A stretch of DNA of 64,000 nucleotides from Promethearchaeota archaeon (GCA_048938295.1 JBHLMI010000008.1:14082-78081), one strand, 5' to 3'; numbered from the stretch's first letter, positions 4,538 through 54,400 are shown. Translations and numbers: made by a program. The notes: generated by a model not told the origin, from the letters alone.

Positions 4538-4569
4538 GAAAGGGAATGTAAACAAGGGGGGAATAGGCA

Positions 4570-5487: not shown

Positions 5488-5564
5488 TAGCGAAATTCTA
5501 CTTTACTAGTTTTAAATACCAGAAGTAAGAAACCGGTACATCTCACTTCACCGAAGACTGTAAG

Positions 5565-6410
5565 GTGTCAGATATGGTTAACTTACTCATCGGGTTCGGT
5601 ATACCCAACTGGGCTTGGGACATCATAGCCCTTGTGATAACATTTCTTGTTATCCTTATCCTGATTCGTGTCAACGACATTCTTAGGAAGCGAGAGATTA
5701 TACCAATCTATATCTCACGAAAAGTCATCCATATTTTCGCGGCGCCAATCTTTCTTGTATGCTGGTTGCTCTTCTCTGGAGACTACTATAGCCGCTATTT
5801 TGCGATGATGGTTCCTCTCCTCTTCGTTCTGTTGTTCATTGGCATTGGAACTGGCATGATAAAGAATGAAGAATTCGTCAATACAATGTCTCGTGAAGGG
5901 AAACCTAGCGAACTGCTCAAGGGGACACTGTTCTATGCGGTTATCATGGTGCTTTCAAGTATCTTCTTCTGGTATGTTCCTGTTGATGGCACGTTGCAAC
6001 CGAGATGGATAGTGTTTATCCCAACAGCGGTTCTGATCTTCGGTCCGCTAGCAGGTGGCGATGGCTTTGCTGATTTGATTGGTCGACGGTTTGGAAAATG
6101 GAAGTTCCATATTTTTGCTGAAAAGAGCTTACTCGGTACGCTGTCAATGTTTATATTCAGTCTCCTTGGAACTTTAGGCCTTCTATTCGTTTTCTGGTTA
6201 GTCCTTGACCCTATTTGGGCATCAGTCAATGTAACCGTACTACTCATCCCAATCATCGTAGTATCCCTAGTATGTACAATCATCGAAGTCTTTAGTCCAC
6301 AGAATATGGATAACCTTTTGATACCATTGTTTGCAGTGATTACCCTCTTCGTCCTAGCCCTCGTTGGCTTGTATCCATACCCCATTTGGCATACCGGACC
6401 CCTACCTTAG
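5565..6410 (+). CDS. CTP-dependent polyprenol kinase family membrane protein (phytol/dolichol kinase-like, CdsA superfamily)
   Basis: 281 aa, about 7 TM segments. C-terminal motif GDGFADLIGRRFGKWKFHIFAEKSLLGTLSMF matches the VTE5/dolichol-kinase signature GDGxADxxGRRFG...KSxxGS. Confidence 0.55.
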   Translation: MSDMVNLLIGFGIPNWAWDIIALVITFLVILILIRVNDILRKREIIPIYISRKVIHIFAAPIFLVCWLLFSGDYYSRYFAMMVPLLFVLLFIGIGTGMIKNEEFVNTMSREGKPSELLKGTLFYAVIMVLSSIFFWYVPVDGTLQPRWIVFIPTAVLIFGPLAGGDGFADLIGRRFGKWKFHIFAEKSLLGTLSMFIFSLLGTLGLLFVFWLVLDPIWASVNVTVLLIPIIVVSLVCTIIEVFSPQNMDNLLIPLFAVITLFVLALVGLYPYPIWHTGPLP

Positions 6411-7652: not shown

Positions 7653-8891
7653 TTGCCAATTAATATCATCGCATTTTTTTCCCCTTCCTCTATGAAACGC
7701 CGGGTTTCAGGAATCTTGGACAAACTCAAAACTGCAGAGGCACAAGTGTTTACCCCTGACACCTATGTGAGCGAGGGTATGAGGCGCGATAAAACCATTC
7801 GTAATCAACATAACTACATCTTTGTTGGATCAGGAGGAACTGAAGCGGATATTGTGAAATTCATAGGCAAAGTCAAACTACCTCCACCGATTCTCCTCCT
7901 TTCGTTTGACGAAGATAATTCTCTACCAGCGGCGATGGAGGTTCGTAAATATTTGGATCAAGAAGGCATTGAGTCACGGATTGTGCATGAGTCATTGGAT
8001 CGGTTGATTGACCGAATTTCTGAATGGGGTCACTTTGATACAGTTCTGACACGGTTGCAGAATAGTCGAATTGGCATCTTTGGGAAACCATCCGCTTGGT
8101 TAATTGCCTCGAGCATAGATAGACAGTCAGTGCATTCAAAGTGGGGAGTTGAATTCAAAGAATACCCCATGAAAACATTAGTAGAGCGAACAGATGATGA
8201 GCTTTGGGCCGAATTTGCCCCCAACCTTGAGAAATTCCTAAACGAGGCAACAACAATTGAATGTAACAACGAGGACCTACAGAAAGTTGCCATTGTCGCC
8301 CAAGCTCTGGTAGCTTCAGCAAAAAATCATGATCTCAATGCAGTTACCCTTGAATGCTTCAGACTCCTTGAGGAGACTAATACTTCAGGATGCTATGCAG
8401 TTTCTCACATTAACTCATTAGATGATCTTGTGGCAGGATGTGAAGGGGATTTACCTACGGTCTTTAGCATGCTCCTAGCGAAATACCTCACAAATCAATC
8501 TGTTTTCATGGCTAATGTGGTGGATGTGAATTTAGATAATAACTCAGTGGTATTTGCCCACTGCACCGTTCCAACGAATATCCTCGAATCCTATGATATA
8601 ACCACACATTTTGAATCGAACAAAAGTGTCGCCATTCGTGGTCGATTCCCCTTCCGTGATATTACAGTGTTCAAATTGTTCGGAAAAGATCTCACTGACT
8701 TCTGGGTATCAGAGGGTGTCATTACTAAAAACCTAACAAGGGAACATGCCTGTCGTACGCAAATCCGGACAACCCTCACTGAATCAGTGGCTTATTTCCT
8801 CGAAAATTCCCTTGCAAACCATCATGTCATTATTCCTGGGAAGCACAAACAGCGAATTGTCGACTTCTTTAACTTCATTCACCGACGCTAA
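7653..8891 (+). CDS. L-fucose/L-arabinose isomerase-like protein (COG2407-like)
   Basis: 412-aa ORF with a TTG start (internal ATG at 7692). C-terminal region ..GCEGDLPTVFS..FAHCT.. resembles the fucose-isomerase C-terminal domain. Assignment is tentative. Confidence 0.35.
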   Translation: MPINIIAFFSPSSMKRRVSGILDKLKTAEAQVFTPDTYVSEGMRRDKTIRNQHNYIFVGSGGTEADIVKFIGKVKLPPPILLLSFDEDNSLPAAMEVRKYLDQEGIESRIVHESLDRLIDRISEWGHFDTVLTRLQNSRIGIFGKPSAWLIASSIDRQSVHSKWGVEFKEYPMKTLVERTDDELWAEFAPNLEKFLNEATTIECNNEDLQKVAIVAQALVASAKNHDLNAVTLECFRLLEETNTSGCYAVSHINSLDDLVAGCEGDLPTVFSMLLAKYLTNQSVFMANVVDVNLDNNSVVFAHCTVPTNILESYDITTHFESNKSVAIRGRFPFRDITVFKLFGKDLTDFWVSEGVITKNLTREHACRTQIRTTLTESVAYFLENSLANHHVIIPGKHKQRIVDFFNFIHRR

Positions 8892-12848: not shown

Positions 12849-14540
12849 CTAGCGTTCAGGCTGAGCGAGTGTTCGAGTCCCTGTTACCAAGGTTATACTA
12901 CCAATACTGAATAGTGTGACAAGGCCGATGAGGGCGAATGCAAAGGGTAAGCCAGTTCTTCCAACGGTTGAGATGATCAGGTCCCAGAAGGGTAATCCAA
13001 GGATATCACCGATCATTGAAATCAGGATGGGGGCAAAGAGGATTATCTGGACGCCCATCATTGTGATAATAACGTTCATCTGGTGTTCGGGTGATTTGGT
13101 ATTTTCATAGTTAGGATTCCATGCGGTGACGCCAGTCGCAAAGATGATTGAGCCACAGATTATAGCATACCCATACGCGAGGAGGAAGAGAAATAGCTCA
13201 ATGCCTCCTGCTGCTACGACGGTGAGAACCACTGCAGGGATAATACAGAGTGGGATGGCGATGATGAAGGCTGAGACGAGTCGTGCCTTGACGAAGCGTG
13301 ATGTTCCAGTTGGAGTGGTTTGAATAATCCAGAGTTGATCTTTGCTTTCCATAAAGGATGTGCCGCTGAAGGTGAAGGTGCCGATGACAGCTAATCCGAT
13401 TCCTCCGACCATGATAAGTCCCATCATATCAAAGCCCCCAGTGTCTCCGAGACTTGTCATCAAATGCGCCATCACGATAGGGAGAATGACCGCTAGAATC
13501 AGCCCATAAGCAATTTTGGATAGGTTTGAAGCCTTTCGAAAGAAGTCTTTCATACAAGTGACAACCAGTGCCCCAAAGGAACCCGATGCTAGTTTTCGAA
13601 TACCTCGATAGAACGTATTATCGCCTTTCACGGTTGTGATTTGCTCTGTTCGTGCACCTATGTTGTAGGTGAATATTCTGTCAGCAGTGAATAATCCGAG
13701 ACCAACACAGGCTAGCCCAAAGACCCCAGATAGCACTGTACTGATGAGAAGATTGAATTGTAGGACTTGATGAAAGAGGAGGATTTGTTCAAGTGAGAAG
13801 TTCAATGTGCTGAATAGAATTGCGAGCCAACTGATGGTATCTGCTGGCCAAGTGAATGGGAATAGAAGGAAGATGTTCATGCCCAGCAGAAGGCTCATTT
13901 GTTGACTATAGAACATGATCCCGTAGATGGGGATGATGGACACTATGGCAAAGAGGATGGCAAGGCCATTCGCAATATCCTTTCCTCGTGCTGATTCACC
14001 AAGCTTTGCTTGAATCGCTGCAGTGATCAGGTTGGAAAGCCAGATGGTAGCCAGAATCATAGCGATGAGAACGAGATAGATAAGGAGTTGACCCACTAAA
14101 ACGACTTCAAAGGCTAGGAATAAGACCGTTAGAAATGGTGGTGCAATATACAGAACAAGGAGTATATAGAGGGGAACTTTCCCGAGGAAGGACCCGATAA
14201 GTATGTCTCGGGTTTTAACGTTGTGTGAGAGGAAGATTTCCCACTGACCGATTTTAAGTTCTTGTAGGGCGCGTGAGAGTGGGATGACTAATAGGATGAT
14301 CCATATGAAAAACATCACTGAGCGCATCAATCCGGGTATAAAACTAATCAGTAAGAATTGGAGGGCTCCGATGGGTATCATCAACCCAACCAGGGTTCCT
14401 ACGAGGTAGGGTGCAATTAGAATAGCCCAGATGAATCCGAATACGAATAAGATTCCCATGTTTCTCGTTCGGTGTTCTCGGAGAGAGATTGTGCTGACGA
14501 GGTATTCGGCTTTGGCAATGCTGAACCACTTTCGTGCCAT
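12849..14540 (-). CDS. ABC transporter permease (ABC-2-like, polytopic)
   Basis: Start moved to internal ATG (MARKWF...) 4 nt downstream of the ATPase stop, preceded by GGTGAGAGG. More than 12 predicted TM helices. Confidence 0.6.
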   Translation of the reverse strand: MARKWFSIAKAEYLVSTISLREHRTRNMGILFVFGFIWAILIAPYLVGTLVGLMIPIGALQFLLISFIPGLMRSVMFFIWIILLVIPLSRALQELKIGQWEIFLSHNVKTRDILIGSFLGKVPLYILLVLYIAPPFLTVLFLAFEVVLVGQLLIYLVLIAMILATIWLSNLITAAIQAKLGESARGKDIANGLAILFAIVSIIPIYGIMFYSQQMSLLLGMNIFLLFPFTWPADTISWLAILFSTLNFSLEQILLFHQVLQFNLLISTVLSGVFGLACVGLGLFTADRIFTYNIGARTEQITTVKGDNTFYRGIRKLASGSFGALVVTCMKDFFRKASNLSKIAYGLILAVILPIVMAHLMTSLGDTGGFDMMGLIMVGGIGLAVIGTFTFSGTSFMESKDQLWIIQTTPTGTSRFVKARLVSAFIIAIPLCIIPAVVLTVVAAGGIELFLFLLAYGYAIICGSIIFATGVTAWNPNYENTKSPEHQMNVIITMMGVQIILFAPILISMIGDILGLPFWDLIISTVGRTGLPFAFALIGLVTLFSIGSITLVTGTRTLAQPER

Positions 14541-14544
14541 CCTC

Positions 14545-15321
14545 TCACCTCCATTGCAAGAGTGTGTTTCGGTCGACTTTGCTTCCAACAATGCGAAGAT
14601 AGGCTTCTTCGAGATTCCTTGCATCTGTGGCGGTTGTGATGTCTTCAAGTGCCCCTTGGATGACAAGGGCCCCATCAATTATGATGCCGATGTGGTCGCA
14701 CACATCTTCTGCAAAGGAGGTTTGGTGTGTGCAAATGAAGAAGGTAGTTGATGTTTCATCAGCAAGGACCTGAATGAGTTCTTTGACAACCATACTTGCA
14801 CTGGGATCCAAACGGGATGTGGGTTCATCAAGAAACACAAGTTTCGGATCATGTAAGAGGGTTGATGCGATGAGGACCTTCTGTTTCATCCCTGAAGAGT
14901 AGGATTCAATCAAATCGTTTTGGCGCGACTCTAGACCAAGTAGTCCAAGGAGACTATCAATGCGATGCATCAACTCTGAACCATTCTTTCCATTCAGAGC
15001 CCCGATGAATTCAAGAAATTCAACTGCCGAAAGTTTTGAGTACAATCCAGGCGTTTCAGGCAGCAATCCTGTGATTTCTTTTATTGCATTTCGTTTCTTA
15101 TCAAGGGGTAGTCCGCAGACGGTTGCTGTGCCACTTGATTGTTTCATGAGACCCGAGAGAATACGCACAGTTGTGGTTTTCCCTGCGCCGTTTGGACCCA
15201 GGAAACCGAAGCGGCTTCCTTGTTTGACTTCTAAGTCAAGATCACGAACAGCGTGGATGAGCCCGAAATGCTTGTTAAGTTTGTCTGTTTTGATGGTAAC
15301 GCTGTTGTTCACGCGTTTCAC
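14545..15321 (-). CDS. ABC transporter ATP-binding protein
   Basis: Walker A GPNGAGKTT, ABC signature YSSGMKQK, Walker B LVFLDEPTSRLD, H-loop. Confidence 0.85.
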   Translation of the reverse strand: MKRVNNSVTIKTDKLNKHFGLIHAVRDLDLEVKQGSRFGFLGPNGAGKTTTVRILSGLMKQSSGTATVCGLPLDKKRNAIKEITGLLPETPGLYSKLSAVEFLEFIGALNGKNGSELMHRIDSLLGLLGLESRQNDLIESYSSGMKQKVLIASTLLHDPKLVFLDEPTSRLDPSASMVVKELIQVLADETSTTFFICTHQTSFAEDVCDHIGIIIDGALVIQGALEDITTATDARNLEEAYLRIVGSKVDRNTLLQWR

Positions 15322-23110: not shown

Positions 23111-26100
23111 ATGTCTTCATACGAGCGAGACCCAAATACCGTCAACGGTGACGACGAGCCACGGTTTCGACTCTTTTTTGAAAATGCGCCCCTCTATTGT
23201 TATATGGTTTCACCTCAGGGAATCATTCTGGACATTAACAAAGCTGCTCTCAAGGTGTTAGGTTACACACGAACAGAACTAATTGGCAAACACATTCGCT
23301 CTATCTACGCACCAGAATGTGAGGATAAGGCTAAAGATCTGTTTATTTCGTGGGAGAATGAGGGTACAATTACTGATGAAGAGCTCATTATCCAAACTAA
23401 AACTGGTGAACAGCGTATCGTTCTCTTAAATGCGAACGCGATTCACGAATCTGATGGATCCTTAGCCTATTCGATTTCGATTCAGCAAGATATCACTGAG
23501 TTAAGACAAAAGAAAGATGAGCTCAAGGAAAGCCAAAATGCTTTGAAAAAATCTGAAAAGGAAAAATCTGTGATTCTGGATAATATTTCAGAACACGTTA
23601 TCTTTCAAGATTTGGAGAACCACATCATTTGGGCTAACCGTGCTGCTGCTGAATCGGTGAACAGCAGTGTAGAGGAACTTGTTGGTAAAAACTGCTATGA
23701 AGTGTGGAACCAGCGAGATACACCCTGTATTGAGTGCCCTATCGTCATGGCTAGGGAAACCGGTGTTATTCAAGAACATGAGATGCGTACACCTAACGGT
23801 CGTGTATGGCATGTGCGTGGGTATCCACTTTATGATGAGAGTGACACTTTAATCGGTTGTGTTGAGGTCACTCGTGACATCACAGAGCGAACGAGGGTTG
23901 AAGAAGCGTATCACAAACTTGTTGATCAATCAATTCAAGGTCTATTAATTATCCAAAATGGAAAGGTCGCCTTCGCGAATCCAGCGTTTCTCCGAATAAG
24001 TGGCTATACAGAGGAAGAAGTCTTAGCCTTTAGTCCCTGGCAGATATTTGATATCATTCATCCGGATGATCGGAATGTTCCCTGGGAACAGCTGCAGAAA
24101 ATCATACAGGGCGAACCGGTTTCAACTACCATGGAGTTGCGTGGAATTCTAAAGGATGGTACCGAACGCTGGTTTGAACTTTCATTAGCTGTTATCGAAT
24201 ACCAAGGTCAACTGTCAACGCAAGTAACGATTATGGATATCGACGAGCGTAAAATGATTGAAGAAGCAATCCGACTCGAAAGGGATTGGGCTCAACGGTA
24301 TTTGGACATGGCAGGGGTCATGTTCATTGCTGTTGATACAAAAGGGAATATCACTTTAGTTAATCAAAAGGCCCTCGAGATTTTTGGATACTCAGAAGAG
24401 GAAATGATAGAACAGAACTACTTCGATTTGTGTATACCTGAGTCATTACGTGCTGAAATGAAAGGGAAATTCCGCGCTAACATGGCTGGAGAAATTGAAC
24501 CACGTGCTTTTGTTGAGAACCCAATCATTACCAAAGACGGCGCAGAAAGACTCGTATCATGGCACACCACTATGTTCTATGATCCCTCCGGAAATCCGAT
24601 TGGTGCCCTAACAGCAGGAGAAGACATAACTGAACGCAGATTTGCAGAGAATCTACTACGAAAAGAAAGGGATCGAGCTCAACAATACTTGGATATGGCA
24701 GGCGCTGCATTTATCGGAGTGGATAGGAATCAAAATATTTTTCTCGTTAATAGAAAAGGCTGCGAGATTTTTAGCTACTCAGAAGCTGAACTTTATGGTC
24801 AGAATTACTTCGACTTATGCATCCCTGAAAGACTTCGTGAGGAAATGAAAGACCGATTTGAACGGGCCATGGTAGGAACATTTCAGTTAAGCGAATATGT
24901 TGAAAATCCTATTAAGACTAAACAAGGCACCGAGCGGATGATTCTTTGGCATACTACTGTACTTGAAGATGAGGAAGGAAATAAAACAGGGATCCTGAGT
25001 TCTGGAGAAGACATTACGGAAAGAAAATTTGCAGAAGAAGCTCTGCGCGCCTCAGAGGAAAAATTCCGTTCTCTTGTAGAGGACACCACGGATTGGGTAT
25101 GGGAAATTAACCGTGAAGGAAGACTTGTCTATTCAAACAGTGCAGTTGAAGACATACTCGGCTATACTGCTGGACAAATCATTGGGAGATCCTTCTTCGA
25201 TTATATGGATTCTACAAGTGTAGAAAATGGTGAAGTTATGTTCACTGAAACGGTTGAAAAGCAGAAACCGTTTAAGAATCTCGTGGATCGCTTCATTCAC
25301 CGAGATGGTAACATTGTGATTCTGGAAGGCAGTGGTCGACCAGTCTTTGATGAGCAGCAACATTTAATCGGTTATCGAGGGGTATGCCGTGACATCACGG
25401 AACGTATGCGGGCTGACCAAATCCTCCGAGAATCCGAATCTCGGTATCGCTCCTTAGTTGAGACATCTCCTGACGCTATTACGCTTACGAATCCAGATGG
25501 AATGATTGTCTTAGTCAATGAACGCGCTGTTCAATTGTTGGGCTTTAATAATCCTGGTGAACTGAGAGGCAGGAATTGCTTTGATTTCATCGTCCCCGAA
25601 GAGCGAAACCGGGCCATTGAAACTTTGAAAAGCACCAAAGAGCATGGACCGTCAGTTCCCCTTCTCTTCAATCTCATTCAAAAAGATGGTAAGATTTTTC
25701 CAGCGGAGATCAGTGCCTCACTTCTCATTGGAGCAGCGGGTAAGGCATCAGGATATATTATTGTTGCTCGTAACATCACTGAACGCAAACAAGCCGAACA
25801 AGCCTTGAGAGAGGCTAAAGCGCGGTCAGAGTTCTTCACAGACCTGATGGCCCACGACCTCAACAATATCAACCAGGCTATCCTCTCTGGAATAGAGTTA
25901 CAGCTGATGAATCCAGAGCTCCCAGAAGAGCTACGTACACAACTTCAGTTATCCTTAGAGCAAGTGGAACGAAGTGCGGCTTTAATTGGACGTGTCAAGA
26001 AATTCTCAGGGATGGATGAAGTTCAAACCCTTATGGACATTCGCGACATAGAACCTGACTTTCGTTCTGCCTTAGAAGCAGTCAAGCAGGCTTTTCCCAA

Positions 26101-26503
26101 GAAGACTATCCTCGTTGATACCAACATTCATCCTGAAGAATTCAAAGTCTTAGCAGATGACTTCCTTGTGGATTTATTTTACAATCTCCTACACAACGCG
26201 GTGAAATTTGATCACAATGAAAAAGTCGACCTTGAAGTGAAAATCTATCCTGACACGAATAAACGTTTCCTCCGTGTAGAAATCAGCGATCATGGTCCAG
26301 GAATCCCGGGTGACTTGAAAGAGCGGATTTTTGCCCGGTACACACAAAAGGTGGGTGAGAAAGCTCAGGGATCCGGTATCGGCTTAACACTTGTTCAACG
26401 CATCATCGATCGATTTGGAGGTCAAATCTGGGTCGAAGATCGGGTCAAGGATACCTATACCCAAGGTGCAAAATTCATTTTTCTCCTCCCAATGTGGACG
26501 TGA
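23111..26503 (+). CDS. soluble multi-PAS (about 7 PAS) sensor histidine kinase
   Basis: 1130 aa with no TM segment. Repeated PAS/PAC blocks. H-box LMAHDLNNINQAI. ATPase G-boxes ..DHGPGIP.. and GSGIGLTLVQRIID. Confidence 0.9.
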   Translation: MSSYERDPNTVNGDDEPRFRLFFENAPLYCYMVSPQGIILDINKAALKVLGYTRTELIGKHIRSIYAPECEDKAKDLFISWENEGTITDEELIIQTKTGEQRIVLLNANAIHESDGSLAYSISIQQDITELRQKKDELKESQNALKKSEKEKSVILDNISEHVIFQDLENHIIWANRAAAESVNSSVEELVGKNCYEVWNQRDTPCIECPIVMARETGVIQEHEMRTPNGRVWHVRGYPLYDESDTLIGCVEVTRDITERTRVEEAYHKLVDQSIQGLLIIQNGKVAFANPAFLRISGYTEEEVLAFSPWQIFDIIHPDDRNVPWEQLQKIIQGEPVSTTMELRGILKDGTERWFELSLAVIEYQGQLSTQVTIMDIDERKMIEEAIRLERDWAQRYLDMAGVMFIAVDTKGNITLVNQKALEIFGYSEEEMIEQNYFDLCIPESLRAEMKGKFRANMAGEIEPRAFVENPIITKDGAERLVSWHTTMFYDPSGNPIGALTAGEDITERRFAENLLRKERDRAQQYLDMAGAAFIGVDRNQNIFLVNRKGCEIFSYSEAELYGQNYFDLCIPERLREEMKDRFERAMVGTFQLSEYVENPIKTKQGTERMILWHTTVLEDEEGNKTGILSSGEDITERKFAEEALRASEEKFRSLVEDTTDWVWEINREGRLVYSNSAVEDILGYTAGQIIGRSFFDYMDSTSVENGEVMFTETVEKQKPFKNLVDRFIHRDGNIVILEGSGRPVFDEQQHLIGYRGVCRDITERMRADQILRESESRYRSLVETSPDAITLTNPDGMIVLVNERAVQLLGFNNPGELRGRNCFDFIVPEERNRAIETLKSTKEHGPSVPLLFNLIQKDGKIFPAEISASLLIGAAGKASGYIIVARNITERKQAEQALREAKARSEFFTDLMAHDLNNINQAILSGIELQLMNPELPEELRTQLQLSLEQVERSAALIGRVKKFSGMDEVQTLMDIRDIEPDFRSALEAVKQAFPKKTILVDTNIHPEEFKVLADDFLVDLFYNLLHNAVKFDHNEKVDLEVKIYPDTNKRFLRVEISDHGPGIPGDLKERIFARYTQKVGEKAQGSGIGLTLVQRIIDRFGGQIWVEDRVKDTYTQGAKFIFLLPMWT
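24275..25051 (+). repeat. tandem duplication of a ~129-aa PAS module inside the histidine kinase
   Basis: Residues 389-517 (ERDWAQRYLDMAGVMFIAVD...GEDITERRFAENLLRK) and 519-647 (ERDRAQQYLDMAGAAFIGVD...GEDITERKFAEEALRA) are about 50% identical and directly adjacent. Confidence 0.6.
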
Positions 26504-27466: not shown

Positions 27467-28150
27467 TTATTTTTCAGCCCATTGCAATGGCTTGGTTTCA
27501 TTATAGATTAACCATCGAGTATCCACCCGAGTACCTCGAAGATGATGTAACCGAATTTTGTGTCTGAGCTGGCTTTTGTCTTCTTCATCACAGATTTCTA
27601 TAACACCATCCACGGAGAATCGCAAAGTTGCTACTACATCGTTTGTATGAACTCCTTCCTCAAGAAGGTAGATTCCAGTTACGCCACGATCCTTCACCCG
27701 AGCACAGAGGACTTGGAGGAATTTTATAACGGATAGTGGTGCTGAATAAGTCATCAAAGTTGTCAAGTTATCAAGGCAGAGGTGACCATTCTCAAGGTCA
27801 GCAATCGCTTGAAGAAGGAGTAAACTAATTGTATTCAGGTCATAGAGATTCTGAAATGAATACGGTTCTTTAGAGGGTTGAGCTGTAACACAAGAAACCC
27901 CATCAGCTATCCGAAGCTGGGAGGCTACTGGCTTTCCTCCGATTTGGCTAAGAGTCTGGCGTATTTGGGCAGGGGACCAGAGAGTCGTAGCAAAAACGGC
28001 GGGTTCTTTTACCTTTAGCCGATCAGCTAAATAGCGTAGAGCAAGGGTAGTTTTCACCACACCAGGAGGTCCAATGAGAAGTAGTTGTGATCCCCTTGGA
28101 AGCTCAAAAGCACCCTGGGGAACAAATGTTGGACTAATAAGGTCAATCAC
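27467..28150 (-). CDS. KaiC-like RecA-superfamily ATPase (single domain)
   Basis: Walker A GPPGVVKTT, Walker B-like hydrophobic strand ending in D/E. 8-nt overlap with the upstream KaiC-like gene. Confidence 0.7.
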   Translation of the reverse strand: MIDLISPTFVPQGAFELPRGSQLLLIGPPGVVKTTLALRYLADRLKVKEPAVFATTLWSPAQIRQTLSQIGGKPVASQLRIADGVSCVTAQPSKEPYSFQNLYDLNTISLLLLQAIADLENGHLCLDNLTTLMTYSAPLSVIKFLQVLCARVKDRGVTGIYLLEEGVHTNDVVATLRFSVDGVIEICDEEDKSQLRHKIRLHHLRGTRVDTRWLIYNETKPLQWAEK

Positions 28151-28850
28151 TATCGATTCCTCCTTGCAGGTATAGTCCTTCTTTCCCGACCTTCATTTCG
28201 TACCATTTTGTCTCATGCTGCACTCCAATTAGACTATATATACGGAGAAACCAGTCAAGTGAGCCCTTTGGTTCAGCAACAGTCTTGGTATGAATTGACC
28301 CTTGAACCAAGGATCGAAGATTTGTGGTCAGTTTGGCATCATGGGCTTGGTCTTCTAAGACGAGGATGAGAATTTTGTTGAGAGTAATGATGCGCTGTGC
28401 GATACTGTGAACAAAAGTCCGGATGCGTTGTTCATCAGGAGCAGACAGACTAAGTCCTGAAACCGAATCGATGATGATAACCGAACCCGGTTTCAAAAGC
28501 TTTGCTTGATCAATCATTATTAGATTGACTTCGTTCAGATTTCCGGGATTATTAATTCGATTAAAGGCAAAGGGATCAGTGTGCATTCCAATTCTCCAGC
28601 TATAAGCGTCCACAAAATAGATGGGGAGTTTCCCCGGCTGAGCGGGGAACGGAATTCCAAAACCACGAGCTTGCTGGACAAGTGTGGAAGGTGTGTTTTC
28701 TGTGGAAAGATACAGGACATCAAGTCCATTATTCGCTGTATCCAATGCAAATTGGAGACTAAAACATGTTTTACCCGACCCTGGTTGTCCAACTAGGACG
28801 ATACTCGTTCCTTTTGGGAGCCCACCCTGTAGGATTGGGTCGAGGATCAC
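28143..28850 (-). CDS. KaiC-like RecA-superfamily ATPase (single domain)
   Basis: GTG start. ILDPILQGGLPKGTSIVLVGQPGSGKT (Walker A), IIIDSVSGL (Walker B). Confidence 0.75.
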   Translation of the reverse strand: MILDPILQGGLPKGTSIVLVGQPGSGKTCFSLQFALDTANNGLDVLYLSTENTPSTLVQQARGFGIPFPAQPGKLPIYFVDAYSWRIGMHTDPFAFNRINNPGNLNEVNLIMIDQAKLLKPGSVIIIDSVSGLSLSAPDEQRIRTFVHSIAQRIITLNKILILVLEDQAHDAKLTTNLRSLVQGSIHTKTVAEPKGSLDWFLRIYSLIGVQHETKWYEMKVGKEGLYLQGGIDSD

Positions 28851-29045
28851 GATAGCCCCCTCTGTTCTCTTATTCGCACCTCAGATTGGCTCTGTAGCCA
28901 AGTTCATAATCTAGCTCTCCTGAATGGGAATAAAGCTTTTGGGAAGTCTGTAGTTGTTCATGGTTATATTGAGGAGAGACGGAAACCTCTTAAGCCATCA
29001 TCTTGGTACTTGAATAGTAGGAGACTTACTAATCGGGGGATTAGT

Positions 29046-29786
29046 GTGGCTGAAAAGACAAAATCAGGTATACCAGGCTTAGATGAAGCATTGCATGGTG
29101 GATTTCCCACAGGCTCAGTGATTCTAATTAGTGGTGGACCGGGTACCGGCAAATCCATTCTACTAAACCAGTTTCTCTTCAATGGTGCGTCACAATTCAA
29201 GGAACCTGGGATCCTCGTCTCTATGGAAGAGTCACTCGCGTCGACGATTAGGAACATGAAACAATTTGGTTGGGATATGCAAGAACTCATGGATAAAGGC
29301 TTAATCGCCTTGGTCGATGCTTCGCCAATGATACAGAATGAACGTATTGTTCTCAAACCTGAGCACCCTGTTCTTGGACGAGAAGAATTTACAATGGAAT
29401 CACTACTGTCCTTGATACATCGTGAAATTCGACGCGTGAAAGCCAAACGTGTGGCCATCGACTCGATTTCGACCCTAACCCTCCAACACAAAGACCTCTT
29501 CCGGATTCGACACGACCTGCTTAACATGGTTCGTTCCCTTCGAATGAGTCAAGCCACCTGCTTGGTGGCAGTGGAAAGCCCCAACGAAGATAGCATCGGA
29601 CGATTTGACGTCGAAGGCTTCCTTATGGACGGAGTCATTATGATGAAACTCATGAGCCAGGGAGCGATCCGCATACGAACTATCGAAATTAACAAAATGC
29701 GTGGAACAAACCATCAAATGAATCCCCTACTCCTCATAATTGGAGAAAAAGGCATTCAAGTCTCCGACCTACCACCCATTCAATAA
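29046..29786 (+). CDS. KaiC-like RecA-superfamily ATPase (single domain)
   Basis: GIPGLDEALHGGFPTGSVILISGGPGTGKS, RVAIDSIS. Start taken at GTG 29046 with GGGGGAT ribosome-binding site; the ORF track gives TTG 29010. Confidence 0.75.
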   Translation: MAEKTKSGIPGLDEALHGGFPTGSVILISGGPGTGKSILLNQFLFNGASQFKEPGILVSMEESLASTIRNMKQFGWDMQELMDKGLIALVDASPMIQNERIVLKPEHPVLGREEFTMESLLSLIHREIRRVKAKRVAIDSISTLTLQHKDLFRIRHDLLNMVRSLRMSQATCLVAVESPNEDSIGRFDVEGFLMDGVIMMKLMSQGAIRIRTIEINKMRGTNHQMNPLLLIIGEKGIQVSDLPPIQ

Positions 29787-29883
29787 CCTCGATGAAAAAT
29801 ACCAGAATGAACCGACTAGCTTAAATCTCAACAAATGAAAGGAAATACCTGAGGGAAAAATCAACTGGGTTTGGTGACAAAAA

Positions 29884-30423
29884 ATGCGCCCCCAAAGCAG
29901 CCGTTACATGTTCAAGGTTTCGGTAATTGGCGATTACGCCGTGGGAAAAACCTCCCTAATTAAACGTTATATGACGGATTCCTTTGATGAAGGGTATAAA
30001 GCAACTCTTGGCGCTGCTATTTCCTCGTTCCAAACCAGCGTAAAGGGATCTGATGTCGCGCTGCAAGTTTGGGATCTAGCAGGCCAAACCTCCTTCCGTA
30101 GAGTTCGGGTACAATATCTATTCGGCACTGATTTCGCGATCGTGGTATTCGATTTAACAAGAAAAGATTCTTTGGACTGTGTTAAAGAATGGGTGAGTGA
30201 TGTAAGGCAGGGTGCGCCTGAAGTACTCCTATTCCTTGTTGGTAATAAGGCAGATTTGAAGGAAGATCGAGTGGTGAACCCTGTGGCTGCTGAGAAAGTC
30301 GGAAAAAGTTTGAATATGCTTGGCTACCTTGAGACCTCCGCAAAGGAAGGAACCAATGTCAAAGAACTCTTTCACATCATTTCCGAATACCTCTTAGAAC
30401 ATACATTCACTGTAATAAAATGA
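29884..30423 (+). CDS. Ras/Rab-family small GTPase
   Basis: G1 GDYAVGKTS, G3 WDLAGQ, G4 GNKADL, G5 ETSAKEG. 179 aa. Its stop overlaps the next start (ATGA). Confidence 0.85.
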   Translation: MRPQSSRYMFKVSVIGDYAVGKTSLIKRYMTDSFDEGYKATLGAAISSFQTSVKGSDVALQVWDLAGQTSFRRVRVQYLFGTDFAIVVFDLTRKDSLDCVKEWVSDVRQGAPEVLLFLVGNKADLKEDRVVNPVAAEKVGKSLNMLGYLETSAKEGTNVKELFHIISEYLLEHTFTVIK

Positions 30424-31898
30424 CAAAAAAGGTGCTCGAACGCGTGACACTCCCAAGGGAAATCACTGAATTCCTGAACGAGGAACAGGGACAAACTCTA
30501 CTCATCAAAGGAAAATCAGGAACTGGAAAATCCACACTAGCCTTATCCTTACTTGGTCATCTAGCCGAGACCCTACCTAAGAAATTCAGTGTTGAAAACT
30601 TTGTGTACCTTTCAACGCGTGTTGCAAGCTCGAGTCTGAAATCCCAATTTCCTTGGGCGTTTCAATTGCTTTCAGAAAATCAAATCATCGATGCGACACC
30701 ATCGCTCATGGGGCTTCCTGAAACCACCTTAGCGTGTGGGGAGTCATCTAACAATCGGATGGTGTACTCCGATGAGTTGACGTTCATTAGCGCAGTAAAT
30801 GATCGATTGCGGAACTTGACCAATCCTGTGTGTGTCATTGACTCATTTGATGCGATTATCGAAGCCGCGCAAGCTGACCCCCAGCGCCTGACAAGCGCAT
30901 TAACGAATCTTGGTCGCATCCTATGCGGTAAAATCATTCTTATTGTCGAAGGTATTGAGGAGTCGACGTTAGATCATATAGTCGATGGTATTGTATGCGT
31001 CACTAAGGAATTCACGGCAGAGCGGATGTGGCGTAGTCTTCGGCTAATCAAGCTCCGTGGTACGCCAATTGATCAAAGTATGCGAGGATTTTCTCTTCGG
31101 GGGAGTCGTTTTACCATTTTGCATTCATTTGATGCAGAACAAGCCAACCGCGTATCAGATTTCGAGGTCATCGCCCACTCTGGTGGTCGATTTTCGTCAG
31201 GAGTCCCAGAACTAGATACGGTTTTTGGCGGTTTCAGACGAGGAAGCACATTCTTCATTGATGTCGCCGAAGGCGTCGCCAACGAAACGGTTCACAGTCT
31301 AATCTTCAGCATGGTGGCGAACTTCCTACGCCAAGACAGCGGTGTTGTCATTGTTCCACCAAACAAACTGAGCTTCCGGCGACTCAAAGCAGCCTCACTT
31401 CGCTACGGATTTGTCGACCAACTCAACACACGCCTCCGCTTCTTCGCAAGTGCAGCGACTAGCCTAGGCGTTTCTAGTGCAACTGGAGAACTTGGTGAAC
31501 CATATTACAAAACCGTGGCATTCCGTGAAAGCTCTGATCTTGAGAATGCTTGGAGTATGGTGGTAGAAGAACTCAGAAATCAAGGGTGCAAAAACTTACT
31601 AAGCGTAGTAGGCTTTGGTTGGTTGCATTCATGGTTAGGCCCAACCGAATTACCACGTTGGGCTACGCGGATTGCCAATGATACCGCTACGGAAAGTAAC
31701 CTAGCAGTCACCATAGGCTATAGCAGTACAAAGGATATAAACCGATATCTGGCAGATTTAGCAGACATTCACGTTCAGTTAGCAGTAAAGGAAGGAGTCA
31801 CAGTCTTTCATGGAATCAATCCCTCGACTCCTCAATACTGCATCTACACACACCTTGTGGAGGGAAACCCACAAATTGGCTTCCAAGAAATCGGATAA
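30420..31898 (+). CDS. tandem KaiC-like protein (active N-domain plus degenerate C-domain)
   Basis: N-domain has Walker A GKSGTGKST. C-domain keeps the KaiC-like loop GVPELDTVFGGFRRGSTFFI but lacks GKT/S, so it is a pseudo-ATPase. Confidence 0.65.
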   Translation: MTKKVLERVTLPREITEFLNEEQGQTLLIKGKSGTGKSTLALSLLGHLAETLPKKFSVENFVYLSTRVASSSLKSQFPWAFQLLSENQIIDATPSLMGLPETTLACGESSNNRMVYSDELTFISAVNDRLRNLTNPVCVIDSFDAIIEAAQADPQRLTSALTNLGRILCGKIILIVEGIEESTLDHIVDGIVCVTKEFTAERMWRSLRLIKLRGTPIDQSMRGFSLRGSRFTILHSFDAEQANRVSDFEVIAHSGGRFSSGVPELDTVFGGFRRGSTFFIDVAEGVANETVHSLIFSMVANFLRQDSGVVIVPPNKLSFRRLKAASLRYGFVDQLNTRLRFFASAATSLGVSSATGELGEPYYKTVAFRESSDLENAWSMVVEELRNQGCKNLLSVVGFGWLHSWLGPTELPRWATRIANDTATESNLAVTIGYSSTKDINRYLADLADIHVQLAVKEGVTVFHGINPSTPQYCIYTHLVEGNPQIGFQEIG

Positions 31899-32256
31899 GA
31901 TTCGCATCCTATTAGCAGATGATTCACCACACTTTCTCCGTTCAGCTCAGCTACTCCTTCGTGACTATGATATTGAAACTGCACTTGATGGGGAAGAGGC
32001 TCTCGCTAAACTTAAGGCTAATCCACCAGACATCTTCTTCGTGGACCTAGTACTGCCAAAAATTCGGGGTACCGACCTCATTCGCCTAGTCTCAAAGGAG
32101 TACCCTGACATTGCCATTGTCGCTTTGACTGCTATCGATGATCATGAAACTGTACAAGAAGTCATGGATTTAGGTGCAAAAGGTTATCTGATTAAGCCTG
32201 TATCATCGGATACCTTCAAGACAGAAATCAAGAAACATACCGAGTCTAGCGATTAA
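31876..32256 (+). CDS. stand-alone CheY-like response-regulator receiver
   Basis: IRILLADDSP (acidic pair), FVDLVLP (phospho-acceptor Asp), ALTA (Thr), KGYLIKP (Lys). Start is uncertain: TTG 31876 overlaps the upstream stop. The ORF track's 31810 start would overlap by 89 nt. Confidence 0.65.
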   Translation: MASKKSDKIRILLADDSPHFLRSAQLLLRDYDIETALDGEEALAKLKANPPDIFFVDLVLPKIRGTDLIRLVSKEYPDIAIVALTAIDDHETVQEVMDLGAKGYLIKPVSSDTFKTEIKKHTESSD

Positions 32257-42472: not shown

Positions 42473-44680
42473 ATGCGTGGCTGGATCCTCGACGTAACTC
42501 CCCGGTCCGACCACTTGGTCCTGTGGTTGCGCACGGCAGCAAAATGCATTCCCTTGGAAATACCTTATCAGCCACAATTCTACTTACACGCACCTGGCGT
42601 CCAATTCGAGAACTATGCGCCGCTGTTCGAGAATCACCCACTGGTATGCGCTGTGACCCCGGCGTTTCGTCGGCTGCAATTGCGAGGCGCGCGACGACCG
42701 GTTCTCGCCGTAACAGTCTCCTCCTGCACCCAACTCTCCCGAGTCGTTCACGAAATCAAAACCCTCGCTGTCCCCCGTTTTCGCGTCTTCAACGGCGATC
42801 TCTCCGCAACCCAGCTCTGGTACCTCGAGCAACGGCGCTTCCCCTTCGAGCAGGTGGAGGTCCACACCGACCAGTCGGGGTCCCGTGTTACCCACATCGA
42901 CTCCTGCGACTCCCGGTGGGCCCTCGACTACGAACTGCCGTCCTTTGATACTGTGGACCTCCACCTAGAAGGAGAAGACCTGTTCTGTGCCACCAGCACC
43001 TCTGGTGAGACGTTGCAGACCACAGAGCCCATGATGCTCCAGGATTGGATTAACATTCAAGATCCGGACATCATCTTCACCGAAGACGGCGACTACCGCA
43101 TCTTTCCTACTCTCATTCGACGCGTCCAAGAGGAGGGGATGTTGCACCAGTTTTCGTTGAGTCGGGACCAGACTCCCCATGTCTTCAGTGACAAGACTCT
43201 GCCTGCAGGTCGTGCTGTCTTCCGGTATGGCGGCCCAGTCTTTTATCGTCCACACCCCTTTCTGCTCCATGGACGTTTGCATCTGGACCGATCACACATG
43301 ACCTTCGGTAACTTCGACGGACTCATCGAATCAAGTCGAATTACCGCCTTTCCGCCCCAGCGTATGGCGCGAAGCAGCCCGGGCACCGGTATCAATATGC
43401 TCCAGATGCAAGAGGCACTCAACCGTGGTGTCCTGATTCCCGAAACCAAAGCCGACCCAGAAGAGTACAAGACCGGGCTTGAACTCCTCAACGCTGACCG
43501 GGGTGGCCACGTCATCACCCCGCGTGTTGGCATCTTCAGTGAAGTCGGCGAACTCGACTTCCTGTCCATGTATCCGTCGCTGATGGTCAAGTATAACATC
43601 TCGCCGGAAGCCTTGTTCTGCGACTGTTGCCCCGAGGACGCCACTGTGGTGCCCGAGATAGGCTATTGGTTATGTCGGCGCCAGCGCGGCATTGTCCCTA
43701 CCTTCCTTGAACCTATTCTCAAGAAACGAATCTACTACAAGCGACACCGCCATGATGACCCTATATACGAGGCGCGGCAAGCCGCGTTGAAATGGCTCCT
43801 CGTCGTCTCCTTTGGTTACCTCGGGTTTCGAGCCTCACGATTTGGTCGCGTCGAAGCCTATGAATGTGTCACAGCCTTCAGTCGACGGGTCCTGCTGCAG
43901 ACCAAAGCCGTCTGTGAACGCAAAGGCTTTGATGTGCTCCATGGCATCGTGGACTGCGTCTGGCTGCAGAAGCCCGGCGCCACTGTCGAAGACTACCTGA
44001 CCGCCGGCGAAGCCGTTGAGGAAGTGACCGGACTACCGATAGAATTTGAAGGCCGCTATCGGTGGATTATGTTCTTGCCTTGTCGCAATCAACCCTACGG
44101 CGCGCTGACACGCTACTGCGGAGTAAAACACGATGGTACCATTAAAGCCCGAGGCATTGAACTGCGACGCCGTGATACTCCACCGTTCATCAAGCAACTC
44201 CAGATGGACCTCCTCACTTGTCTGGCGGGAGCTGAAGACACTGATGAGATGCAGCAACTGCTCCCGCAATTGCTCGATATCGTCAAAGACTATCTTGACC
44301 TTTTGCACAGCGGTGGAATGACAACGGAGGACCTCATCATCACTCAACGCATCAGCCGATCCCCCCACGAATACCAGCAGCAGTGCAGCCAGGCCATTGC
44401 CGCTGAACTCGCCATCCGATACGGGCAAGACATCCAGCCAGGACAAGCCATTAAGTACGTGCACACCGACTCCACGTCTCGTCATCCATTGCGCCGTGTC
44501 GCGCTCCCCCACACCGCAGCAGCAGTCCACTATGACAAGGACAAATACACCGAGCTGCTGCTCCGCGCCGCCGATACCCTCCTGACACCCCTCGGTTGGA
44601 ATTACGAGCGGCTCACACAATACTTCAGCGATAAACCAGTCCAAACCTTGCTGGACTCTCATATTCGAGTGCGAAAGTAG
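42473..44680 (+). CDS. family-B DNA polymerase paralog (GC-rich; degenerate exonuclease motifs and degenerate motif C)
   Basis: N-terminus MRGWILDVTP.. resembles archaeal PolB N-termini. Pol motif A LDFLSMYPSLM, motif B KWLLVVSFGYLGF, KxY-region KARGIELRRRDTP. Motif C position reads VLHGIVDCVWL instead of YxDTDS. Exo I position is HLE instead of DxE; Exo II is DGDYRIFPTL. GC content of the ORF is about 58%, against roughly 40-45% in surrounding genes. Confidence 0.7.
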   Translation: MRGWILDVTPRSDHLVLWLRTAAKCIPLEIPYQPQFYLHAPGVQFENYAPLFENHPLVCAVTPAFRRLQLRGARRPVLAVTVSSCTQLSRVVHEIKTLAVPRFRVFNGDLSATQLWYLEQRRFPFEQVEVHTDQSGSRVTHIDSCDSRWALDYELPSFDTVDLHLEGEDLFCATSTSGETLQTTEPMMLQDWINIQDPDIIFTEDGDYRIFPTLIRRVQEEGMLHQFSLSRDQTPHVFSDKTLPAGRAVFRYGGPVFYRPHPFLLHGRLHLDRSHMTFGNFDGLIESSRITAFPPQRMARSSPGTGINMLQMQEALNRGVLIPETKADPEEYKTGLELLNADRGGHVITPRVGIFSEVGELDFLSMYPSLMVKYNISPEALFCDCCPEDATVVPEIGYWLCRRQRGIVPTFLEPILKKRIYYKRHRHDDPIYEARQAALKWLLVVSFGYLGFRASRFGRVEAYECVTAFSRRVLLQTKAVCERKGFDVLHGIVDCVWLQKPGATVEDYLTAGEAVEEVTGLPIEFEGRYRWIMFLPCRNQPYGALTRYCGVKHDGTIKARGIELRRRDTPPFIKQLQMDLLTCLAGAEDTDEMQQLLPQLLDIVKDYLDLLHSGGMTTEDLIITQRISRSPHEYQQQCSQAIAAELAIRYGQDIQPGQAIKYVHTDSTSRHPLRRVALPHTAAAVHYDKDKYTELLLRAADTLLTPLGWNYERLTQYFSDKPVQTLLDSHIRVRK

Positions 44681-51409: not shown

Positions 51410-54400
51410 CTAGGGGCTGTCCGTGAAGCGGACATCCTCACAAGTCGGGCACCCAGCATACAACACCTGCAGTCCTTCCAGGGATCCATCACGGAACACG
51501 GTGATGCCCTTCAACCCCAACTCATCCGCCAACAAGAATACCCGACGAATATCCTCCGTCGAAGCGTTGTTAGGCACATTAACGGTTTTGCTTACTGCAT
51601 TGTCTGTGTGTTTCTGGAAGGCTGCTTGCACGCGCACATGCCATTCAGGATCGATTTCATGAGCAGTTTTGAACAAGCGCTTGATATCGTCTGGTACACC
51701 TTCCACGTCCTGTACAGATCCCGTCGATGCCACTTCCTGCTCAACAGCTTCACACCAGAAGCCACGTTCTTCAGCAATTTCGACGAAGTATCTGTTTGTA
51801 TCCGTCAAGCGGACACCTTCAGTGAGTACCCGATCATGCACAATAGCAAACAAAGGTTCAATCCCACTACTGGTCCCCGCAATCAAGCTAATACTCCCAG
51901 TAGGGGCAATCGTGATTAGCGTTGCATTCCGCTTCCATTTCCGACGCTGCTTCAATAAATCAATGTGCTCGAAGTTACCCCGCACCTTCGCCAGTTCCGC
52001 TGACGCCCGCTCCGCACGATTCCGAATGAACTCCATCACCTGTTCCGCTAATTCCAAGGCTTTCTCGGAATCGTATGGAATCCGCAGCTGAATGAGCATC
52101 TCCGTCCAGCCCATAATCCCAAGCCCAATCTTCCGCGTGGCTTTGGTCTGAATGGCAATCTCTTCCACCGGATACTTATTCAAATCAATAATATTATCCA
52201 AGAACCGCACCGCCAACGGAATAATTTCACCCAACCGCTTCCAATTCACCTCACCATCCTCCACTAGGCGGGATAAGTTGATGCTACCTAACACGCACGA
52301 CTCGTAAGGCAAAAGTGGTTGCTCACCACAATTTGAAACAATGATTCCTGATAGTTTTTTGTTCCCCTTTTTGCTTTCATACTCTCTAGTTATCGTGGCA
52401 AAATTATGATAGTCATCTACCGTGATGTTATAGACATCGGAGATTCCACAATCTTGAACCGAAGCAACTCGATGATTCAATTCAGCAATGGCAGGTTTGT
52501 TTAATGCCCTATAGGTATTGGAACAACCTCTTGAACAACATACCTGTGGTTTTGATTTGATATACTCAATTCGCGTACCACAAACCGGACACTCGCCTTC
52601 CAAATTACTATCTTTCCACCTTTCTTTCGCAGCTATGCTTATTTTCTCCCGAATTTCTTGATCAGCCATTACTTCATTCATTCTTTCTCGGAAAATCTTG
52701 CTAAACTTCTTGTCAGAGAATCTTCTTCGGGTTGATTCACTAATTTTTACTCTTGTTTCATACGAGTGAATTCTGCCGAACATACCATTGTCTTCACCAG
52801 ATCTCCCAACAGCCAGGTGTTCCTTAATCCAATCCTCTGGCATACGATGATAGGGATTGTTAGATCCAAGCATATCTCGTCGATGAAGCTTTCTGTGCTC
52901 ATGGGATGTCATAATTTGAATATTTGCCCATGAATTATCCAATGTATCATAGTTTATGTGATGAACAACCTCACTTCGCTTTAATTTCCGTCCAAGCATA
53001 AATTCTGCAATTATTTTATGCTCTCCACGATGAAACACATTCTGATTTTGATGAATATGCCAATACTTGCTTTTCTTACCTCGTTGTCTGTATTGAATCT
53101 TGAAAAATGGCATTATTCGATCCCCCTCCTTCAGGCTGCCTGCTTCAACATAAGAACCGTCCCTTAGCATCACTCTATGGTTTTTAGTGAGTTTGAGAGA
53201 ACTATTATCATCAAAAGTAACTTCAACAATTGGAACTTGTTCTCTTGTTTTTCTTGGATTTCGACCCATTCTGACAACCATCCCATCGCCTGACCAACAA
53301 AAGACTGGAACACCTCTACCCTCTCGGGCAAGGTCCTCAATTGACACATAATTTCTCCCATCAGCGACGGCAATAAGCGTATCACCAGAAACACACGGAT
53401 TCGTTGATTCTATTTGTTTGCCTTTGAGGGGGTGTTCGTCGTTAATGCGATCGATGAAGATCATGCCGGGGTCCCCGGTGTTCCAGGCGTTCAGGATCAT
53501 AGAGTCGAAGATCATGCGAGCACTGATGGTTTGCTCGACTTCACCGGTGTGAGGGTTGATCAAGTCGATGTTCCCACCGGTTTTCAAGGCATGCATGAAC
53601 TCGTGGGTGACGGCGACGGAGATGTTGAAGTTACGGAAGGATTTCTTGTCGGCTTTCGCACTAATGAACTCCATGATATCCGGATGATCACACCGCAAGA
53701 TAGCCATGTTCGCACCGCGTCGCTTGCCTCCTTGTTTAATAACATCGGTAGCAGTATCATAGATGCGCATGAAGGAGACTGGACCGCTGGCGACTCCACC
53801 TGTAGATCCGACTGTTGTACCCTTTGGTCGGAGCTGAGAAAAAGAGAATCCCGTATTGTGTACTACCACAAGATGGCCATTTCCTGCTAGATAATTCTGG
53901 TTTATCGGAACAGAGAAGTCATAAAGAGTGGCACTTTCCCCTTTAATTTCTACATCTTTTACCTGAATTCTACGAAAACTGAATGGCTTATGTTTGCTTA
54001 GTCGGGGTTTCCGTTCGGTCGGGAATAAACGTCCATAGCCTGTTGAGAAAGCAATTTCCCATCCTGTGGATCGAATACCAAAACGGGTTCTATCTCGTCT
54101 TCTAACCTTGTAATTTATTCCGATCATTGCGAGGAGGCTGGAGAGAAAGTCCTTTAGTGAGTCTGATGATGTGTAAAGACTTATCACATCTCGACCAAAG
54201 TAGCCATCTCCGTCTAATAGCCCAGCAATAAAAGAAAATGGTGCACCAGGTATGAATTGAGGAGTTAGCTTATCTTCCCCAACGATTTCGTATAAATGAT
54301 AAATGAATGAATCTTTCTTTTTGGTAGTGGTTTTTAGAATATAGCAATTTTCTCTTGGATCTTTTTGTAGCTTCAATCGGCGTGTGTTTCTATACTTTGC

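Follow-up and report, generated by a model that had tools for sequence, protein, structure and literature searches.

Cyanobacterial KaiC works with SasA/RpaA and CikA output. In archaea, KaiC-family ATPases have been proposed to serve as signalling hubs linked to two-component parts (PMC5847659; PMC6393860; PMC10983859), and fusions of KaiC with a receiver domain (REC) exist in Methanosarcinaceae (PMC5847659). The haloarchaeal protein GvpD oligomerises, binds GvpE, whose gene lies just downstream, and lowers the GvpE level in a P-loop-dependent manner (PMC4390858). Most eukaryotic-signature genes of Asgard archaea, small GTPases included, are reported to lie outside conserved neighbourhoods, and other Asgard GTPase operons have been listed, e.g., LAMTOR1-like/Rab-like GTPase/DENN (bioRxiv 10.1101/2020.10.19.343400). 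Here, we analysed a 64-kb stretch of DNA from a Promethearchaeota archaeon (GCA_048938295.1, JBHLMI010000008.1:14082-78081; this whole stretch is referred to as the window, and all positions are counted along it), in which a cluster at 27467-32256 encodes KaiC-like proteins and a Rab-like small GTPase, together with a stand-alone REC. An earlier note, made from the sequence alone, had described this cluster as a hard-wired module of these three parts. Our analysis favours, with roughly even confidence, a lineage-specific signal-transduction cluster of the Hermodarchaeota type and of the archaeal KaiC-hub kind, built around a core of a GvpD-like protein and REC. The cluster is not an obligate three-part module.

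Domains of the open reading frames (ORFs) were called by Pfam, and family calls were also made by NCBIfam. The gene order is histidine kinase (HK), an exosortase-family gene, KaiA227 and KaiB235 on the minus strand, KaiC246, the GTPase, the GvpD-like gene, REC, and then IscU and NifS on the minus strand (Table 1); the labels KaiA227, KaiB235 and KaiC246 are working names for three single-domain KaiC-like proteins. All ORFs were found at the positions given by the earlier note. In the literature on archaeal KaiC hubs, active and inactivated KaiC paralogs are clustered with a PAS-HK and REC as they are here, and the pairing of inactive with active KaiC domains is a described theme; the difference is that REC is a separate gene here, translationally coupled to the GvpD-like one, and that a Rab-like GTPase stands in the probable operon. 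The cluster extends the known archaeal KaiC-hub/two-component theme by adding this GTPase. No link between KaiC and a small GTPase in Asgard archaea was found in the literature searched, where the 2017 KaiC survey is known second-hand, so that an earlier mention is possible. The claim of an undescribed system holds to this extent, but links of KaiC with REC and HK in archaea had already been described (PMC5847659). With haloarchaeal GvpD the GvpD-like protein shares a P-loop KaiC-like domain, a second domain with an arginine motif and a small partner gene directly 3′ of its own (PMC4390858), whereas the downstream gene here encodes REC instead of the leucine-zipper activator GvpE. A true gas-vesicle function was rejected, as none of the window's ORFs scanned with Pfam belonged to a gvp family. 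Like the GTPase of other Asgard operons, the present one is a Rab-like protein without a prenylation motif in a conserved neighbourhood of prokaryotic style, but its neighbours are KaiC-family proteins and REC rather than Roadblock, longin or DENN proteins, and it is confined to one clade rather than shared by most Asgard archaea.

The evidence for the core comes from the pairing of the GvpD-like gene with REC. Judging from the compared sequences, these two genes are the firmly coupled unit of the cluster, since they are the only pair never separated in the lineages checked. This holds even in L041 (39% identity), where the overlapping pair lies beside fumarase and not IscU, with no GTPase within 392 nt upstream. 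The only REC start conserved across lineages is TTG 31876, which gives a 23-nt overlap with the 3′ end of the GvpD-like gene in every lineage checked and agrees with the gene calls in L002, L041, L042 and L076; it is most likely the true start. The stand-alone receiver overlapping the preceding stop, as the earlier note had it, is present, but most likely with this start and not that of the longest ORF, whose overlap with the GvpD-like gene is 89 nt. The acidic pair DD, the acceptor Asp, the Thr and the Lys of REC are kept in 20 orthologs (LLADDS, FVDLVLP, ALTA and IK, invariant or near-invariant), and the protein is predicted to be phosphorylatable. It is not a CheY proper, with 51 bits to CheY_Halo against a cutoff of 200 and no che or archaellum genes in the window. 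Furthermore, a REC gene lies within about 100 nt of distant GvpD-like genes (25-28% identity) in eight loci (L057, L059, L060, L061, L067, L070, L071 and L072), two of which (L067 and L071) have the neighbouring REC confirmed by Pfam. On the metagenome contigs of L057, L059-L061, L067 and L072 (e.g., L067:7995-9805), a stand-alone REC gene is convergent to the GvpD-like gene and lies 9-16 nt downstream, while L071 has REC upstream and a hybrid HK downstream; in L033 and L062, REC genes are found 1.4-1.7 kb away. No GTPase lies beside the distant GvpD-like loci at 25-28% identity, and a GvpD-like gene of Theionarchaea at 30% identity has neither REC nor GTPase nearby. The distant loci with a REC gene suggest a wider GvpD-like/REC partnership in archaea, and the 23-nt overlap together with the recurrence in distant archaea suggests that REC may partner generally with a little-understood branch of the archaeal KaiC family.

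The 492-aa GvpD-like protein matches GvpD_P-loop (PF07088, E 3e-13, 50.7 bits against a cutoff of 24), KaiC (PF06745, E 1e-12) and GvpD_bR2 (PF20440, E 4e-8, 33.6 bits against a cutoff of 27.9, covering only model positions 2-75 of 254), and its architecture is therefore considered GvpD-like. The description of a "tandem KaiC" protein is right in that two KaiC-fold domains are present, but the two GvpD families place the architecture elsewhere. The N-domain carries Walker A GKSGTGKS and Walker B VCVIDS without a catalytic Glu (LSTRV). In the C-domain, Walker A is lost (VAEGVANE in the five-domain alignment), as expected from the pseudo-ATPase described earlier; a catalytic Glu is absent, Walker B was not identified, and an FRRG motif is invariant. 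The KaiC Pfam model gave no match to the C-terminal half, whereas hhalign aligned this half to the KaiC246 profile with a probability of 70% (E 4e-5). The AlphaFold2 model of the protein (pLDDT 84.6, pTM 0.80) matched full-length two-domain KaiC in Foldseek with an E of 1.5e-23 over ~495 columns; the TM-score was only ~0.38, in our view because the two domains are oriented differently relative to each other. On these alignments and the modelled fold, the C-terminal half is a fifth KaiC-fold domain. The four proteins scored 65.3, 98.9, 222 and 48.1 bits with PF06745 against a cutoff of 26.6, so the profile search supports the domain assignments, and the count of four genes with five KaiC-fold domains stands, four domains by Pfam and the fifth by hhalign and AlphaFold/Foldseek.

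Table 1. Positions of the genes and sequence elements of the cluster and its upstream neighbours in the window.
Feature	Position	Strand	Support
Soluble sensor HK, 7 PAS + DHp H-box (AHDLNN) + HATPase_c	23111..26503	+	Pfam, NCBIfam
Exosortase/archaeosortase-family membrane protein, 246 aa	26714..27454	+	TIGR04178; several hydrophobic segments
KaiA227, degenerate P-loop KaiC-like	27467..28150	-	PF06745 E 7e-18; DUF7504 PF24336 E 2e-14
KaiB235, single-domain KaiC-like ATPase	28143..28850	-	PF06745 E 4e-28
KaiC246, single-domain KaiC-like ATPase	29046..29786 (ORF from 29010)	+	PF06745 E 9e-66
B recognition element (BRE)/TATA-like box AACCGAC-N3-CTTAAAT	29810..29826	+	58 nt 5′ of GTPase ATG; aligned in 13 orthologous loci
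Shine-Dalgarno (SD)-like GGTGA	29873-29877	+	Upstream of GTPase; kept in 13 loci
Rab-like small GTPase, 179 aa	29884..30423	+	PF00071 E 4e-45, 153.7 bits vs cutoff 21.6
GvpD-like two-domain KaiC-family protein	30444..31898 (ORF 30420-31898, 492 aa)	+	PF07088, PF06745, PF20440
Stand-alone CheY-like receiver (REC)	31876..32256 (longest ORF 31810-32256)	+	PF00072 E 5e-23, 81.8 bits vs cutoff 30.2

The HK was analysed as a possible input to REC. Its sequence could be read with a canonical H-box and with the N, G1 and G2 boxes, and the seven PAS domains, the HATPase_c domain and the absence of any hydrophobic segment confirmed the soluble seven-PAS kinase that had been placed just upstream of the cluster. 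Its position is kept in the clade while its sequence is fast-evolving (29-73% identity). Judged by its proximity, it is the probable phosphodonor of the orphan REC. We infer the protein contacts, the phosphotransfer, the co-transcription and the direction of signal flow in the following mechanism. The core would be the GvpD-like protein, which combines a nucleotide-binding domain with a pseudo-ATPase one; its translation would be coupled to that of a phosphorylatable REC. The multi-PAS HK, or another kinase, would phosphorylate REC, which would bind the GvpD-like oligomer and alter its nucleotide-dependent contacts with partners, and the phosphorylation of REC would gate that nucleotide-dependent interaction, by analogy with GvpD-GvpE. 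The single-domain KaiC paralogs, by their motifs one fully catalytic, another almost so and the third degenerate, would probably be components or regulators of these same oligomers. In most of the clade, the GTPase gene is probably co-transcribed with the GvpD-like gene and REC, and its product would serve as an accessory GTP/GDP switch on the input or the output side.

The GTPase itself proved to be the complete Rab/Ras-type protein that had been claimed. Its G1-G5 motifs are intact (GDYAVGKTS, the T in YKATLG, WDLAGQ, GNKADL and TSAK) and kept in 20 orthologs, and its best solved relatives are Rab6, Rab43, Rab35 and Rab1, with Rab6B as the top PDB match (E 4e-35). The protein ends with EHTFTVIK, without a C-terminal prenylation Cys. 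Its orthologs, at least 56% identical, form a tight group found in the Hermodarchaeota-type clade only, beyond which the identity falls to ~43% in other Asgard archaea, Korarchaeota and fungal Ryh1/Rab6. The spacer between KaiC246 and the GTPase is 97 nt long and holds the BRE/TATA-like box and the SD-like GGTGA. This box is the putative promoter of a unit in which the GTPase, the GvpD-like gene and REC would be transcribed together; KaiC246 and the divergent KaiB235/KaiA227 pair would be transcribed separately from it. An ATGA stop/start overlap of the GTPase with the GvpD-like gene had been taken to imply co-translation. The overlap does exist in the window, but neither L010 (95% identity) nor L005, the nearest orthologous loci, carries its ATG, and translational coupling through ATGA was rejected on this ground. 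The conserved start pattern of the GvpD-like gene is AGGTG followed by an in-frame GTG. Since the ATG is missing in the closest loci and the GTG pattern is conserved, the start is most likely GTG 30444, or GTG 30432 (used by gene callers), rather than ATG 30420, and it would lie at most 21 nt past the GTPase stop. A 101-aa ORF between the Ras gene and the GvpD-like gene in L002 and L003 was considered as a Roadblock-like GTPase partner and rejected, as it gave no Pfam match and no homolog among the other loci; it is probably spurious or lineage-specific.

The window belongs to an Asgard archaeon of the Hermodarchaeota type; its closest genome match is a Candidatus Hermodarchaeota metagenome-assembled genome (MAG), whose GvpD-like protein is 95% identical. 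The full gene order from HK to NifS recurs in ~12 species-level MAGs and ~10 metagenome contigs at 57-95% GvpD-like identity; the adjacency of KaiC-like genes, GTPase and REC is conserved across the Hermodarchaeota-type clade and so is not unique to this locus. Nevertheless, a number of observations weigh against the cluster as we have drawn it. The IscU, NifS, DsrE, TusA, acyl-CoA dehydrogenase and major facilitator superfamily (MFS) genes of the flanks are equally syntenic; because such housekeeping genes are syntenic too, gene order alone is weak evidence of function, and the clade-wide order may come partly from shared ancestry. In L015 (57% identity), KaiC246 is followed directly by the GvpD-like gene and REC without a GTPase. 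In L077 (72-1713) and L078 (77-1592), from one related lineage, the exosortase-family gene and IscU enclose an orthologous GTPase (56% identity) that has the same promoter-like box, and these blocks contain no KaiC, GvpD-like or REC gene. A GTPase found there without the other three points to modular gain or loss inside a syntenic block. In L002 (60% identity), an LplA gene is inserted before the GTPase, and the GTPase is ~400 nt from the GvpD-like gene. These exceptions are incompatible with the hard-wired three-part module of the earlier note. Moreover, HK and REC are separated by the exosortase-family gene and the divergent gene pair, and HK evolves fast. The N-domain of the GvpD-like protein lacks the canonical catalytic Glu, which makes ATP hydrolysis by this domain uncertain. 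Most of the distant GvpD-like loci have no adjacent REC, and among those that do, several may be closely related.

The same exceptions bear on whether the GTPase belongs to the cluster at all. It might be that only the GvpD-like and REC genes, possibly including the KaiC paralogs, work as a unit, and that the GTPase is an unrelated neighbour with a promoter of its own, held in place by inherited synteny in a genome crowded with Ras-family genes. L015 on one side and L077/L078 on the other show the parts occurring apart, the promoter-like box is the GTPase's own and still precedes it where it stands alone (L077), and orthologs do not share the ATGA overlap. None of three genes checked among the closest Rab-like relatives outside the ortholog group (~40% identity) lies beside a KaiC gene. 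The window also holds three Ras-family genes in 64 kb, so that a GTPase adjoining another gene is not rare here. On the other hand, in most loci no more than about 25 nt separate the GTPase stop from the opening of the GvpD-like ORF, which leaves no room for a separate promoter, and the arrangement persists down to ~50-62% GvpD-like identity (L049, L053 and L076). We regard an unrelated neighbour as somewhat unlikely. That the GTPase is a true functional partner of the GvpD-like oligomer and its receiver is itself rather doubtful; in that case, a small GTPase of eukaryotic signature would work within a prokaryote-type phosphorelay/ATPase switch, and the pseudo-ATPase scaffold would act as its effector, GTPase-activating protein (GAP) or guanine nucleotide exchange factor (GEF) platform.

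The consequences differ accordingly for the two cases. If the GTPase is merely a neighbour, the locus would be one more lineage-specific KaiC/two-component cluster. If it is a partner, this would point, together with a Ras-TackOD1 pair in the window, to soluble signalling switches on two-component-style modules as the original form of Asgard Rab-like GTPases, ahead of any role in membrane traffic. The Rab-like GTPase, the GvpD-like protein and REC are a trio of clade-conserved, small, soluble and expressible proteins, through which the role of an Asgard Rab-like GTPase can therefore be approached at the bench. The Ras-TackOD1 pair consists of a second Ras-family GTPase gene at 4004-4537 on the plus strand and, 33 nt further on, a gene for a TackOD1 protein (4570-5487, PF18551), followed by a 281-aa ORF (whole stretch 4004-6410). 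TackOD1 serves as an output domain in two-component regulators of archaea, and the pair is another case of an Asgard small GTPase beside a prokaryote-type signalling domain. A Ras-TackOD1-TackOD1 set also occurs in L002 (117-3145), directly beside a DUF7504/KaiC pair. The third Ras-family protein of the window, 331 aa long (57812-58807, minus strand), has an N-terminal GTPase domain and a ~160-aa C-terminal extension without a Pfam match.

Analysis of the single-domain paralogs showed that the two minus-strand genes overlap by 8 nt at 28143-28150, as had been noted. KaiA227 has a degenerate Walker A (GPPGVVKT), no catalytic Glu and Walker B LCLDN in the five-domain alignment, and its P-loop is decayed further in distant orthologs (GPPGTVKAH and GPPGHVKVN); it is likely an inactivated KaiC of the DUF7504 type. 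KaiB235 has GQPGSGKT as Walker A, a single catalytic Glu (STEN) and IIIDS as Walker B, and its matches to KaiC_arch_4 and ArlH-like models all fall under the equivalog cutoffs. KaiC246, which starts at GTG 29046 and not at 29010 according to the gene callers, has Walker A GGPGTGKS, the Glu pair MEES and Walker B VAIDS, and keeps 73-93% identity throughout the clade. Only one of the five KaiC domains, that of KaiC246, has all the catalytic motifs; KaiB235 and the N-domain of the GvpD-like protein have a partial set, and in KaiA227 and the GvpD-like C-domain the set is absent.

KaiC246 is very close to the CI domain of KaiC (E 1e-60 to 3e-70 to KaiC in the PDB), which raises the question of a KaiC-based timer, either an oscillator or an hourglass, with a two-component output like KaiABC-SasA/RpaA. 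A protein with the two-domain KaiC fold is also present, and KaiC-family ATPases occur together with an HK and a receiver protein, as in cyanobacteria. However, the cluster contains no KaiA or KaiB gene, all its proteins score far under the circadian KaiC equivalog cutoffs (185 bits at best against 408, NF006799/TIGR02655), and the N-domain of the GvpD-like protein lacks the catalytic Glu pair. With no Walker A in the CII-equivalent domain, autokinase cycling there is implausible, and the organism comes from sediment metagenomes. Membership in circadian KaiC was rejected on the sub-cutoff scores, the missing KaiA and KaiB and the pseudo-ATPase second domain, and a timer of this kind appears very improbable.

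Besides the GvpD-like/REC core, the neighbours of the cluster are also conserved, and the cluster might serve to regulate one of them, i.e., the convergent Fe-S/sulfur-transfer operon (IscU, NifS, DsrE and TusA) or the archaeosortase-family protein. Such regulation would tie redox signals, or others that PAS domains sense, to the assembly of cofactors or to the processing of surface proteins. In every locus of the Hermodarchaeota type, IscU and NifS follow directly downstream, and the exosortase-family gene and IscU still flank the GTPase in loci that lack the KaiC genes. The convergent orientation, however, rules out a shared transcript with IscU/NifS, L041 has fumarase downstream of the pair, a Ras-TackOD1-TackOD1 set stands in place of both HK and the exosortase-family gene in L002, and the cluster encodes no output domain that binds DNA. 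Taken together, a regulatory link to these neighbours is improbable. The 246-aa exosortase-family protein passes the cutoff of TIGR04178 (43.5 bits against 23) and stays below that of the heimdallarchaeosortase model NF045528 (59 bits against 130), and because of the latter score it is likely to be a distinct archaeosortase type. Its gene is probably a conserved neighbour outside the signalling module; it still adjoins the GTPase in L077 and L078.

A cluster of several NTPases could also be an anti-phage defence system or the cargo of a mobile element built on P-loop NTPases. PADLOC returned weak matches limited to the P-loop (E 4e-5 to 5e-4; mad8 and LeoA, E 4e-5 to 4e-4) and no full-length match, and a defence system was rejected for this reason. 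No compositional anomaly was seen at the cluster, no integrase or transposase was found near it, and the position of the locus is stable and syntenic across species, which leaves defence or mobile cargo as a barely credible reading. Rfam and tRNA scans of the window gave no match.

Several other features of the window and its relatives are recorded here. Three large ORFs gave no Pfam match at E<=1e-3, at 461-3226 (minus strand, 921 aa), 12849-14678 (minus strand, 609 aa) and 7653-8891 (plus strand, 412 aa). On L080 (1696-3678), a Lokiarchaeota contig, two Ras-family genes flank thioredoxin-like and V4R/DUF2507 genes on the same strand, an arrangement unrelated to KaiC. The large subunit of ribonucleotide reductase (1377 aa, 51410-55543, minus strand) carries two intein-like insertions (Intein_splicing twice, LAGLIDADG and HNH). 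The window has a single GC-rich block, with a GC content of 0.556 against ~0.45 elsewhere, and the gene of a family B DNA polymerase (42473-44680, plus strand) is located in it.

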